Positions 38,054 to 42,770 of a DNA stretch of 64,000 nt are shown one piece after another. Position 1 is the first letter of the stretch. Each line of letters starts with the position of its first letter. Under the pieces are notes generated by a model, which was given only the letters and a program-made list of their open reading frames with translations, ran no database searches and was not told the origin of the DNA. Source of the stretch: an uncultured Phycisphaerales bacterium (GTDB lineage Bacteria; Planctomycetota; Phycisphaerae; Phycisphaerales; UBA1924); the NCBI GenBank assembly GCA_965652365.1, contig CBFGUD010000005.1, positions 22,136 through 86,135 of the forward strand, in the 5' to 3' direction. The position numbers were made by a program, and so were the translations under genes.

Positions 38054-39584
<1,531 letters not shown>

Positions 39585-39603
39585 TCCCCTCAAGCTCTTG
39601 CTC

Positions 39604-40041
39604 TCAAAGCAAGTGCTTCGCCTCGACCCCTCCCCACTTGTCGTTGAGATACTCAACCACAAGACGCCGGTGACAATGGTGAGGCTTGTGCTCACTGCAC
39701 AAGAGACACCCTTGATCGATCACATCCATTGCTATAGACTCGTCGATCCTGCGTTTCTCAAGCAGAGCCATGAACTCTTGCTCGTACACAGACCAATCCC
39801 CCTTGTGCTTCTTGAACGCGTCCAAGATGTCCTTTGTCGGGGCCAGCTCTGGGACATGCACGTATTCCATGTCACACAAATTCTTCAGGAAATACACGAG
39901 ATCATCACGCTTCGAGAAACCCGCAAGCTGCCCCGTGTTGTTGAGCCGAACATCAATGACACGTTTCACACCCGACTCTCGGAGGAGCCGAAAGAATCGT
40001 TCAGCAGTCTTTTGCGTGAAACCGATCGTGAAGACGTTCAT
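39604..40041 (-). CDS. DUF488 family protein (short paralog)
   Basis: 145 aa. MNVFTIGFT..VKRVIDVR.. and C-terminal LLCSEHKPHHCHRRLV (C-x-E-x5-CHR) as in DUF488. Confidence 0.85.
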   Translation of the reverse strand: MNVFTIGFTQKTAERFFRLLRESGVKRVIDVRLNNTGQLAGFSKRDDLVYFLKNLCDMEYVHVPELAPTKDILDAFKKHKGDWSVYEQEFMALLEKRRIDESIAMDVIDQGCLLCSEHKPHHCHRRLVVEYLNDKWGGVEAKHLL

Positions 40042-40050
40042 CTGACTGGA

Positions 40051-40671
40051 TCACCCATATCGAACCTGGTTCATCGCATAGCTCTCTTCCGGTTCGACCC
40101 ACGCAATCCGGTCCGCCTGCTTCGCATACGCCTGCTCAACCAACTCATCACGCGATTGAAACAGATCGCCGACCGGGAACCCGAGCAGATCGAGTAGGCG
40201 ATCTTCCGCCTCTTTGTTCGTCTCGACTCTGCCATCACCGAGGACGTGAACAATCTCTCGAGCACGATCGCCAAGCTCACGGCACACAAGAATCATACGG
40301 TGACACGTGATCGGATCCTGCTCGGAACACATCAGCGCCACACGCCGACTTTGCGCCTCACTCAGCACGGCATTGATACCCTCGCGGAAAAGTTGGAGCT
40401 TCGCGATCTGGTCATACCTCGCCACACGATCAACATAACACTCCGGCTCATGTCTTCTCGCCCCGAGTTCACGCCCCAAGAACCGGTACCCACGACCTGA
40501 TCTTCGGAGGGACGTATCCATCGCATCCCGATGAAACTGAGGGCTGAACTTGCTGTACGGACTCGACCGCACATCCAGAACGGCATCGATCGAGTGCCGA
40601 TCCAAGAGCGATTCAAACTCAGCCCAACTGTGATTCGAGTGACCGATTGTCATGATACTAACACGATCCAT
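40051..40671 (-). CDS. DUF488 family protein (long paralog)
   Basis: 206 aa. MTIGHSNHS..AVLDVRSSPYS..RFLGRELG.. and LMCSEQDPITCHRMIL. GAGG SD upstream. Alternative ATG at 40653. Confidence 0.85.
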   Translation of the reverse strand: MDRVSIMTIGHSNHSWAEFESLLDRHSIDAVLDVRSSPYSKFSPQFHRDAMDTSLRRSGRGYRFLGRELGARRHEPECYVDRVARYDQIAKLQLFREGINAVLSEAQSRRVALMCSEQDPITCHRMILVCRELGDRAREIVHVLGDGRVETNKEAEDRLLDLLGFPVGDLFQSRDELVEQAYAKQADRIAWVEPEESYAMNQVRYG

Positions 40672-40678
40672 CGAAACC

Positions 40679-41389
40679 TCATTCCGTCAGCGGGATCACC
40701 GAAGCGATCAGCTTGTAGTGGTATCCATTGAACGGTGCGCCAAGACTCACACACAGCGCACAATTCTCTGCTATATCTGGCACAAAAACGTGCTCGTCGC
40801 CGTCTGGTTTTGGACAGTGCTTGGCTGTAAAGCTGTCATCCGTAATCGAGAGCGAGTATTCAACCCCTGCATACTCAAAGATCCCTCTTGTTTTATGCTG
40901 GTTGTAACCCTTAAACGGATTGTATTCAGCCCACATACGCACACGAAACTGATCAGGACGGATCAAAACCAGAGATGGCGAACCGGCTTCTCCTGCCTGA
41001 GTCTGTTCAGCGATCCGGTCAGCGTGCTCTGGGTCTTCCAGCCAAAGATCGTTCGGATGTTCAACCCACCCCTCAACTTCCGCTGCTGATACCTCACCGA
41101 TCTTGTTCCACTCTGCTCCCGTCTCAACCTGCCAGTTCTCCGGTTGGCAGGGATCATTCTGGTTTTCTAACAGCGGCACTTCAACCAGATCGAGAACCTG
41201 CGGCATGCCGCCTTGACGAAGTGTGCAGTGCTTCCGGACAATCAACTCTCCCTCACCTTCGTCACTCACCGGCCGAAGCCATGATCCGACTTGAAGCTCA
41301 GCATCAGCTTGCTGAATCTCCCGCCCAGCTACGCATCGCTGCTTCTTCTTGATCGAGTTCGCAAGCACGACCATGGTCTTCGTAGCCAC
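40679..41389 (-). CDS. uncharacterised protein, probably dual OB-fold (DuOB-like)
   Basis: 236 aa. GTG start 6 nt after GGAGG. N-terminus VVLANSIKKKQRCVAGRE..WLRPVS and a second module LVLIRPDQFRVRMW..FEYAGVEYSLSITD. The family call is from memory only. Confidence 0.55.
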   Translation of the reverse strand: MATKTMVVLANSIKKKQRCVAGREIQQADAELQVGSWLRPVSDEGEGELIVRKHCTLRQGGMPQVLDLVEVPLLENQNDPCQPENWQVETGAEWNKIGEVSAAEVEGWVEHPNDLWLEDPEHADRIAEQTQAGEAGSPSLVLIRPDQFRVRMWAEYNPFKGYNQHKTRGIFEYAGVEYSLSITDDSFTAKHCPKPDGDEHVFVPDIAENCALCVSLGAPFNGYHYKLIASVIPLTE

Positions 41390-41450
41390 GGGGCACCTCC
41401 TGCCTCAAATCGTACTCCAGCCACACTACGACGGGCATATCGAATCCAAA

Positions 41451-41459
41451 ATTATACCA
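41451..41459 (-). promoter_or_regulatory. extended -10 promoter element for the cassette
   Basis: Minus strand reads TGGTATAAT (TGn + perfect TATAAT), about 60 nt upstream of the GTG at 41389. No convincing -35. Confidence 0.4.
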
Positions 41460-41504
41460 AACAAATCGATTGACGACCCAGATTTGTGCGGTATTTTTTA
41501 GGGC

Positions 41505-42770
41505 ATGGTCCTGTTCCTCGATCTCAATTCCTTCTTCGCCTCCGTCGAGCAGCAGCTCCGCCCCGAGCTGCGCGGGCGCCCCGTCGGGATCATCCCCAAC
41601 GACTGCGACACAACCTGCTGTATCGCCGCCAGTTACGAAGCCAAGCACTTCGGGATCATAACCGGGTGCTCGGTCCGTGACGCGCGCCTCCGCTGCCCCG
41701 GGATCGCGCTCGTCCTGTCCCGTCCGGACGAATACATCTCCATGCACCACAAGGTCTTGGAAGCCGTCGACACCGTGTACCCCGTCCACTCCGTGGACTC
41801 GATCGACGAAATGTCCTTCCGTCTCACGGGTCCCGATCGGGACGTGATGCGCGCCCGCGAACTCGCGATGAAGATGAAATCCGCGATCCGCGCCCACTGC
41901 GGCGAGTTCATGCGCTGCTCCATCGGGATCGCACCCAACCGGATGCTCGCCAAATCCGCCAGCAACATGATGAAGCCCGACGGGCTCGTCGTCATCGAGC
42001 GATCCGAGCTCCCCCAGCGCCTCCACCCCATGGACCTCACGGACTTCCCGGGGATCTCCGACGGGATCCGCAACCGGCTCCACCGGGTCGGGATCCACAC
42101 GACCGAGCAGCTCTGCCGCGCGACGAAAGCGACCATGCGCCGCGCGTGGGGCGGGGTCGTGGGCGAGGTCTGGTACCACTGGCTCCAAGGCGACGAGCCC
42201 CACATCGCCGCGACCAAACGGCGCAACTGCGGGCACCAGCACGTGCTCGCGCCCGAGCTCCGCGGCAACGAGCAGGCGCGGGCCGTCGGGATCCGATTGC
42301 TCCACAAGGCGGCCGCCCGGATGCGCCACGAGGGCTTCTGGTGCACCAAGCTGACCCTCAAGATCAAACCCCCCGACGCGCCGTCCTGGGTCGCGTACGT
42401 CAATCTCGAACCCTGTCAGGACACGATCCGGCTCCTCTGGCACCTCGGGGAGCTCTGGAAGATCCAGCCCCACGCGTTCGTGTTCGCCGTCTCCGTCACG
42501 CTCGGGGGATTGACCAAAAGCGACCAGATCGAGGAGCCCCTCTTCGAGCTCGACCGGAAACGCACGCGCCTCGCGCACACCATGGACCGGATCAACCAGA
42601 AGCACGGGCACGCCTCGATCTACTACGGGTCCATGCACGAGGGACGCGACGCCGCGCCGCGCCGGATCCCGTTCAGCACGGTCCCGGACCTCGATCTCGC
42701 GGACACGGGCGGGATGGGCGCGTTCAAAACCAAGGACGGCACAACCCGCGTCGCGGACAAGCGCGCGTGA
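41505..42770 (+). CDS. Y-family (DinB/UmuC-type) translesion DNA polymerase
   Basis: MVLFLDLNSFFASVEQ (catalytic Asp plus steric gate), SVDSIDEMSF (catalytic D/E), and the little-finger region. 421 aa. Confidence 0.85.
   Translation: MVLFLDLNSFFASVEQQLRPELRGRPVGIIPNDCDTTCCIAASYEAKHFGIITGCSVRDARLRCPGIALVLSRPDEYISMHHKVLEAVDTVYPVHSVDSIDEMSFRLTGPDRDVMRARELAMKMKSAIRAHCGEFMRCSIGIAPNRMLAKSASNMMKPDGLVVIERSELPQRLHPMDLTDFPGISDGIRNRLHRVGIHTTEQLCRATKATMRRAWGGVVGEVWYHWLQGDEPHIAATKRRNCGHQHVLAPELRGNEQARAVGIRLLHKAAARMRHEGFWCTKLTLKIKPPDAPSWVAYVNLEPCQDTIRLLWHLGELWKIQPHAFVFAVSVTLGGLTKSDQIEEPLFELDRKRTRLAHTMDRINQKHGHASIYYGSMHEGRDAAPRRIPFSTVPDLDLADTGGMGAFKTKDGTTRVADKRA

Follow-up and report, generated by a model that had tools for sequence, protein, structure and literature searches.

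A low-G+C cassette between obg and a Y-family polymerase gene and its match to the three-gene defence candidate PDC-M45

A 64,000-nucleotide stretch of DNA from an uncultured Phycisphaerales bacterium (contig CBFGUD010000005.1, positions 22,136 to 86,135; hereafter the window, meaning this whole stretch) carries, between obg and a Y-family polymerase gene, a compact low-G+C cassette of three genes that we call A, B and C. We find that this cassette is almost certainly a horizontally acquired copy of PDC-M45, a three-gene candidate defence system held in PADLOC-DB v2, a release that dates from 2023. Gene A encodes a dual-OB (DuOB) protein, and genes B and C encode two DUF488 paralogues.

Identity of the cassette and its insertion site

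All three proteins match their PADLOC-DB v2 models along nearly the entire profile. Residues 2–233 of gene A align to positions 2–224 of the 230 in PDC-M45A (E = 4.4e-55), residues 1–198 of gene B to positions 1–198 of the 204 in PDC-M45B (E = 3.9e-70), and residues 1–144 of gene C to positions 1–144 of the 145 in PDC-M45C (E = 3.4e-72). In Pfam, gene A is a DuOB protein (PF22557; E = 1.2e-52, 179.5 bits against a 27-bit cut-off, profile positions 1–210 of 210), and both remaining genes belong to DUF488 (PF04343, cut-off 22.2 bits; gene B at 1.1e-20 and 74.8 bits, gene C at 3.9e-23 and 82.8 bits). Gene C additionally passes the DUF488-N3a model (PF22751, the “active N3 subclade”) with E = 6e-10 and 39.9 bits against a cut-off of 27, whereas gene B falls below that cut-off in Pfam (17.2 versus 27 bits) and has no match to the N3i model. 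Gene B belongs to a DUF488 lineage of its own, which the PDC-M45B model covers. Its assignment as the “inactive” DUF488-N3i partner was considered and rejected, given the missing N3i match and the Cys/His/Arg loop that it retains.

An earlier note, made from the letters alone, had put the cassette forward as an undescribed system. Its domain assignments, a dual OB protein for A and DUF488 for B and C, agree with Pfam, and no function has been assigned by experiment to dual OB-fold proteins, as the note had stated. However, full-length matches to PDC-M45A, B and C, together with dedicated Pfam models for DuOB and DUF488-N3a, mean that the system is not undescribed, and RefSeq already names the A-type protein “dual OB domain-containing protein”. 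The discovery claim therefore fails, and the locus adds a further member to a candidate system that is already catalogued. Among named, validated defence or toxin–antitoxin components there is no match, PADLOC giving only PDC-M45 and the domain-level PDC-M19A, and NCBIfam returns nothing meaningful for the three proteins. In the literature searched we found no mention of PDC-M45, and the terms “DuOB” and “dual OB” gave unrelated papers only; the main text of the DefensePredictor paper is without DUF488, DUF4326 or OB folds, and its supplement holds “DUF488” only as product names in a score table. PDC stands in PADLOC for a putative defence candidate; such systems are unpublished, derive from guilt-by-embedding and are for the most part not validated.

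The cassette is also set apart by its layout and composition. Exactly three open reading frames (ORFs), all on the minus strand, occupy positions 39585–41504 between the obg stop codon at 39584 and the polymerase start at 41505, with both neighbours confirmed by Pfam. The gaps are 7 nt between A and B (40672–40678) and 9 nt between B and C (40042–40050), so that the tight operon proposed from the letters is exact in the ORF table. The cassette has a G+C content of 0.534 (z = −8.0), while windows of equal size in the rest of the 64 kb average 0.682 ± 0.019 and go no lower than 0.633; no deeper G+C dip occurs in the window. In 200-nt windows, G+C is 0.49–0.585 within it and 0.63–0.73 outside, while G+C at third codon positions is 0.56–0.66 in the cassette genes versus 0.88–0.92 in obg and the polymerase gene. 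Similarly, the tetranucleotide distance from the cassette to the rest of the window is 0.639 versus 0.239 ± 0.038 (maximum 0.342). The abrupt drop that had been claimed from 60-nt samples counted by hand (0.533, 0.550, 0.433 and 0.717, all of them exact) is thus borne out by both the sliding-window and the tetranucleotide profiles. No tRNA or Rfam match lies within the 64 kb window and no integrase adjoins the cassette (ORF list and neighbour inspection), in agreement with the earlier note; the surroundings are housekeeping genes.

Comparison with related DNA reveals the corresponding empty site. In the metagenomic sequence L050, whose polymerase is 81% identical at the protein level, the 3′ end of obg is followed by an 85-nt spacer and the polymerase gene. 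L050 positions 1–392 align to window positions 39120–39511, and L050 498–1763 to window 41454–42720, such that the window holds 1,920 nt in place of the 85 nt. Since this relative has obg adjoining the polymerase gene without the cassette, the cassette is an insertion of about 1.85 kb. The foreign composition and the empty site both bear out the claim of horizontal origin. The insertion has no flanking direct or terminal repeats beyond short ones at chance level, and no recombinase is present. The closest relatives, L053 and L054, with polymerases 95% identical, carry another gene (L053 16–690, L054 3–704) directly upstream of the polymerase gene. Its 224-aa product has a weak calcineurin-like phosphoesterase match, no homologue in the window and no PADLOC match. 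Because the closest relatives carry a different gene at this position, the junction between obg and the polymerase gene seems to be variable.

The right edge of the insertion borders on DNA that belongs to the host. About 75 nt directly upstream of the polymerase gene are conserved among the window (41430–41504), L050 (470–553), L053 (720–803) and L054, and contain an inverted repeat, with arms at 41446–41467 and 41481–41502 in the window and the form AAAATACCGAACA...TGTGCGGTATTTT in the relatives. The extended −10 match TGGTATAAT and the GGAGG site lie where the earlier note had placed them, but the note's view of the former as a foreign signal does not hold: TGGTATAAT is what the left arm of this repeat reads on the minus strand, and since relatives that lack the cassette have the repeat conserved as well, the extended −10 sits in host DNA. 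A sigma-70 scan did not call the TGGTATAAT site, since a −35 hexamer is missing. The window reads TGTTTGGTATAATTTTGG where the relatives read TGTTCGGTATTTTGTAGG, a difference of a few substitutions (CG to TG, TATTTT to TATAAT) that is compatible with promoter capture after insertion. The repeat itself may be an operator of the polymerase gene, possibly of the SOS type.

Table 1. Positions of the cassette features in the window and examples of the alternative third gene in other loci
Feature	Position	Strand	Description
Gene A	40679..41389	-	Dual-OB (DuOB) protein, 236 aa, GTG start; PDC-M45A equivalent
Gene B	40051..40671	-	Long-form DUF488, 206 aa, C-terminal extension of ~70 residues; PDC-M45B equivalent
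Gene C	39604..40041	-	DUF488-N3a protein, 145 aa; PDC-M45C equivalent
GGAGG ribosome-binding site	41396..41400	-	6 nt 5′ of the gene A GTG (41389); read from the sequence
TGGTATAAT, extended −10 consensus match	41451..41459	-	Within left arm of host inverted repeat
Inserted low-GC DNA, ~1.85 kb	~39585..41430	.	Right edge uncertain, 41390 to ~41445
mSLOG-DUF4326 gene, other loci	L020 9048-9653; L048 3435-4028; L055 9449-10042		Form seen across L020-L042

We note two further observations on the flanking DNA. The listed obg ORF (400 aa, GTG at 38382) starts about 60 codons before the GTP1_OBG domain, and its 5′ end (38382–38560) overlaps a minus-strand PilZ-domain gene (38054–38725); in another assembly (L046) obg is annotated with 341 aa, which puts the likely true start about 59 codons further downstream. 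Across the window, GC skew stays positive over the first ~25 kb, lies near zero at 26–33 kb and turns negative past ~34 kb, with a cumulative peak at ~29–30 kb, a switch that could be replication-terminus-like or reflect a changed gene-strand bias.

Conservation and genomic setting

A scan of one genome per species yielded 44 loci with a DuOB relative, 43 of which were used for the analyses of composition and neighbours. The order A-B-C, again tightly spaced, recurs in 17 other loci from Planctomycetota, one verrucomicrobial genome and two Pseudomonadota, while the order B-C-A is found in Campylobacterota and one deltaproteobacterium. Whether the trio is conserved as a neighbourhood is thereby answered: it forms an operon in Planctomycetota, Verrucomicrobiota, Pseudomonadota and Campylobacterota. 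In the chromosome of Candidatus Thiovulum stygium (L018 5513-8636) the order is B-B′-C-A, with two long DUF488 proteins 33–34% identical to the window's B; in a deltaproteobacterium (L035), B is split into two ORFs, possibly through a frameshift or decay.

A second architecture, A-C-(mSLOG-DUF4326), occupies 21 gammaproteobacterial loci (Vibrio, Marinobacter, Kushneria, Salinicola, Cellvibrio and others). Here B is replaced by a 201-aa protein that matches the Pfam models mSLOG (“minimal SLOG”; 7e-42) and DUF4326 (5e-20). This third protein has no PADLOC v2 model, and consequently a search that requires PDC-M45B would miss the gammaproteobacterial form.

The three proteins differ in how strongly they are conserved. 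Over 16 A-B-C loci, the window proteins share on average ~41% (A), ~52% (B) and ~68% (C) identity with their counterparts, C being the most conserved component of the cassette, and the DUF488-N3a partner keeps 50–80% identity across phyla. By these values, A is a fast-evolving subunit beside a strongly constrained putative enzyme, C, a pattern of the sensor/effector kind. The family is large: against 1.84 billion representative proteins (representatives of 50%-identity clusters, built from 15 billion proteins), the DuOB profile finds 3,523 proteins with E ≤ 1e-3, of which 2,452 have E ≤ 1e-10.

In almost every one of the 43 loci, the cassette has a G+C content below that of its flanks, and no flanking gene family recurs among them, its own genes aside, beyond three or four chance cases. 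Neighbours were tallied as counts per PADLOC and Pfam family. At the genomic loci, the 127 genes next to the cassette comprise restriction enzymes (types I, III, IIG and IV), BrxL, DruH and several PDC-S candidates, and also ParE, PIN, AEP-TOTE, a transposase and many housekeeping genes, among others. On plasmid pAt1D1108a of Agrobacterium tumefaciens (L049 438-10221), A-B-C lies between a CBASS operon (HORMA, AAA ATPase) and TcmP-DUF5131, with an integrase ~4 kb downstream, and this locus would suit studies of the A-B-C form in its natural setting, in a host that can be cultured. The same dense defence island also holds a pair of helix-turn-helix and ImmA/IrrE genes. In E. coli LR-29-1, the A-C-DUF4326 form (NZ_AP027515.1 3474788-3476519) belongs to an island that also holds IS3 and two recombinase genes.

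Plasmids are a recurrent setting as well. Relatives of gene A are found on 23 of them, among which a mobilizable 4,167-bp Klebsiella pneumoniae plasmid has A, C and mSLOG-DUF4326 as nearly its sole cargo. Acinetobacter plasmids of 10–25 kb carry the system, in one case near a RelE/ParE toxin gene, and so do small Citrobacter plasmids. To the question of whether the genes occur in defence islands, the answer is yes at several loci (with CBASS, restriction, BREX and Druantia neighbours), in addition to the plasmids.

Phage records give a different picture. Gene A has no match among 50,697 phage records, and its matches are found on 2 of 2.9 million IMG/VR contigs; gene C has a distant (33%) match in Gordonia phages only. 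A phage origin of the system was accordingly considered and rejected, as A is without a match in the phage records and only the two IMG/VR contigs hold the system.

A DUF488 cluster listed in Table S1 of Millman et al. 2022 (84 genes from 44 genera, mean length 189 aa) has a defence score of 0.429 with q = 7e-4. This cluster may correspond to the B family.

Predicted functions of the three proteins

The AlphaFold2 model of gene A (predicted local distance difference test, pLDDT, 94.9; predicted template modelling score, pTM, 0.91) comprises two all-beta modules, residues ~1–100 and ~140–233. The peptide motifs quoted in the earlier note are found at residues 7, 37, 140 and 171. Foldseek searches of the PDB and BFVD gave no match at E ≤ 1e-3, and the best neighbours, all weak (E ≥ 1e-3, TM-score ~0.3, ~10% identity), are tandem-OB DNA binders: the HIN-200 domains of p202, p204, AIM2 and IFI16, the Oxytricha telomere end-binding protein (TEBP), RPA70 and, among viral structures, baculovirus LEF-3. 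In sequence and profile searches of the PDB, no relative of A, B or C scored below E = 0.5.

Across 40 DuOB homologues, with identity down to 27%, 17 positions are invariant, including N11, S12, K14, C19, R39, S215 and K226; DuOB has the invariant polar motif LANSxKxxxxCxAG...WxR. These residues hint at a specific pocket. DuOB is fused to a B-type DUF488 in two single polypeptides (P0355 and P0409), to an HRDC domain in P0406 (496 aa), and to a superfamily 2 (SF2) helicase in P0371 (927 aa), which also has a weak phosphoribosyltransferase-like stretch. In P0289 (616 aa), DuOB stands behind an N-terminal region with a faint KilAC/ANT match. Fusions of the helicase, HRDC and KilAC/ANT types indicate that the DuOB module is reused outside the DUF488 system. 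We propose that gene A encodes a nucleic-acid-binding or specificity subunit.

The motif C-S-E-x5-C-H-R that had been read in both B and C is present in both. Among orthologues, CSE-x5-CHR is invariant in C (33/33), and C-[AS]-E-K-D-P-x-x-C-H-R is kept in 17 of the 18 B sequences, the sole exception resembling a fragment. Since the Cys/His/Arg loop is kept in both lineages, both DUF488 paralogues look catalytically competent, and the part of the earlier claim that had denied the cassette any known enzyme is to be qualified to this extent. More than 7,800 homologues of gene C were scored; the best 120 all belong to PF22751 and are 68–82% identical to C. In its AlphaFold2 model (pLDDT 91.0), gene C adopts an alpha/beta fold with the CSE-x5-CHR loop between the strand at 111–115 and the helix at 124–136. 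Foldseek returned no match for it at E ≤ 1e-3 (best E 0.098), and its weak neighbours include phosphatases of the protein tyrosine phosphatase (PTP) fold, such as 3ro1 (probability 0.82, TM-score 0.50) and PRL-1/2, and also diphthine-synthase-type methylases. Considering the conserved loop, we regard B and C as putative Cys-dependent phosphotransfer enzymes. Work by Burroughs and Aravind from 2023 is said to be the source of the DuOB, DUF488-N3a/N3i and mSLOG Pfam models and reportedly classes DUF488 among rhodanese-phosphatase-type enzymes; its abstract is also said to predict DNA-end processing for this enzyme clade.

We tentatively favour a mechanism for conflicts with mobile elements in which A recognises nucleic acid and brings B and C, as two Cys-dependent phosphotransfer enzymes, to terminal sugar-phosphates. 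The proposed steps would be: (I) the two OB-like barrels of A bind a nucleic acid that is probably single-stranded DNA or RNA or a terminus, and A acts as a fast-evolving recognition subunit in a physical complex with B, (II) B and C, both enzymes of the rhodanese-phosphatase type that need no metal, catalyse phosphotransfer on terminal sugar-phosphates, their substrates being nucleic-acid ends or a ribose-phosphate adduct on them, with a second step that may act on a nucleotide-like or ADP-ribose-like sugar phosphate, and (III) the nucleic acid of an invading phage or plasmid would in this way be blocked or marked.

Several observations suggest these steps. The HRDC and SF2 helicase fusions, and tandem-OB DNA binders as the best structural neighbours, link A to nucleic acid, and the single polypeptides that join DuOB to B-type DUF488 suggest that A and B are physically coupled. 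The loop kept in both paralogues, the faster divergence of A, and the frequent setting of the cassette on plasmids or beside restriction, BREX, Druantia and CBASS genes also speak for this reading. The nature of the second substrate is suggested by the gammaproteobacterial form, in which a nucleotide-binding domain joined to a sister enzyme, mSLOG-DUF4326, takes the place of B. DUF4326 is a rhodanese-phosphatase clade that is often fused to SLOG and has been proposed to remove terminal ribose phosphates from ADP-ribose derivatives, which SLOG domains are proposed to sense (PMC9503650); the replacement of B fits this proposal on terminal ribose phosphates.

A number of points weigh against the proposed mechanism. 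None of the three proteins was recognised as a known type of toxic effector, such as a nuclease, pore or NADase. In A, the invariant polar residues resemble a specific ligand or catalytic pocket more than a generic surface for binding single-stranded DNA, and A may do more than bind. The fold assignments of A and C rest on Pfam models and weak similarities, as neither Foldseek at E ≤ 1e-3 nor the PDB supplied a relative. Furthermore, the window and many Planctomycetota loci have housekeeping neighbours and no defence island, and the PDC systems are unpublished and mostly unvalidated candidates.

Alternatively, the enzymes could act on small molecules. They would then process free nucleotides or NAD+/ADP-ribose derivatives, with A sensing phage nucleic acid and switching them on, and the depletion or production of a nucleotide-derived metabolite or signal would lead to abortive or growth-arrest immunity. 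The fusion of mSLOG to DUF4326 in the gammaproteobacterial form agrees with this, as do the proposals on SLOG sensing and DUF4326 processing of ADP-ribose derivatives (PMC9503650) and a LOG/SLOG-like phage protein that is predicted to bind AMP and whose viral homologues carry DUF4326. However, the form in the window is without a SLOG domain according to Pfam, the DuOB-HRDC, DuOB-helicase and A-B fusions fit a polymer substrate better, and neither a signal-producing cyclase nor a signal-activated effector is encoded. We therefore hold a small-molecule system to be rather unlikely.

It seems improbable that the cassette instead serves the mobile element that carries it, as an anti-defence, establishment or addiction module that would, for example, neutralise host immune nucleotide signals or repair DNA or RNA ends of the element that host defences have damaged. 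The near-sole cargo of the 4167-bp Klebsiella plasmid and the small Acinetobacter and Citrobacter plasmids are what such a module would lead one to expect, architectures of the SLOG-DUF4326 type are found in viruses and have a phage anti-Avs protein as a relative, and a recognisable toxic effector is missing. Yet A is absent from the 50,697 phage records and reaches just 2 of the 2.9 million IMG/VR contigs, and many chromosomal copies, including that of the window, have no surrounding element. Moreover, the co-location with restriction-modification, BREX, Druantia and CBASS is the very pattern used to predict defence genes, and both PADLOC and scoring of the Millman type flag a defence association.

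An accessory role in DNA repair together with the adjacent polymerase, such as cleaning blocked DNA ends, is very improbable: the cassette adjoins the Y-family polymerase gene in divergent orientation, and OB folds with end-processing enzymes are typical of repair, but the polymerase is a neighbour in no other locus, no flanking gene is conserved among the 43 loci analysed, obg and the polymerase gene adjoin each other in L050 with no cassette between them, another gene stands there in the closest relatives, and the foreign composition and sporadic, plasmid-borne distribution are unlike those of a core repair function. As no linkage is seen in any other genome, the adjacency is coincidental, and the functional link to the translesion polymerase that the earlier note had drawn is rejected.

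Significance and comparison with known systems

Returning to the favoured mechanism, in which A guides B and C to terminal sugar-phosphates, a broader version of it can be put forward. The DuOB and DUF488-N3a core, with either a second DUF488 or mSLOG-DUF4326, would then be a widespread immune system with a chemistry new to defence, in which a HIN-like sensor guides phosphotransfer onto or from nucleic-acid termini or ribose-phosphate adducts and the DuOB pocket is catalytic or senses a ligand. We consider this possible, if doubtful.

The value of the locus lies in its membership of a large family that reaches clinical Klebsiella, Acinetobacter and Citrobacter plasmids and E. coli islands. What is new here is the empty-site comparison, the A-B fusions, the exchange of B for mSLOG-DUF4326, and the catalytic-type residues in both DUF488 paralogues. 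Taken together, these findings yield a concrete hypothesis for which E. coli can serve as the test host.

Among known systems, PDC-M45 is the direct counterpart of the cassette: the composition is the same, without any difference, and all three models match at full length within one tight operon. As PDC-M45 is itself an unvalidated candidate with no assigned mechanism, membership names the cassette and does not explain it. More distant likenesses concern the single proteins. As is predicted for A, the tandem-OB binders (HIN-200 of AIM2, IFI16 and p202, Oxytricha TEBP, the DBD-A/B of RPA70, and LEF-3) place two consecutive OB-like barrels in a unit of ~200 residues, whereas DuOB has an invariant polar motif of its own and no detectable sequence homology to them. 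PTP, low-molecular-weight (LMW) PTP and PRL phosphatases weakly resemble the model of C in their Rossmann-like alpha/beta architecture, in which a strand ends in a Cys and a loop then leads to an Arg that opens a helix; the loop of B and C, C-x-E-x5-C-H-R, differs from the CX5R of PTP-type phosphatases in its Cys–Arg spacing of 9 and its second Cys.

At the level of whole systems, Pnkp-Hen1 and DarT-DarG offer a functional analogy, as small mobile operons that pair a nucleic-acid-binding part with enzymes acting on termini or adducts. This analogy, to RNA repair by Pnkp-Hen1 and to ADP-ribosylation of single-stranded DNA by DarT-DarG, is one of function only, and neither system is known to be related to the cassette in sequence or domains.

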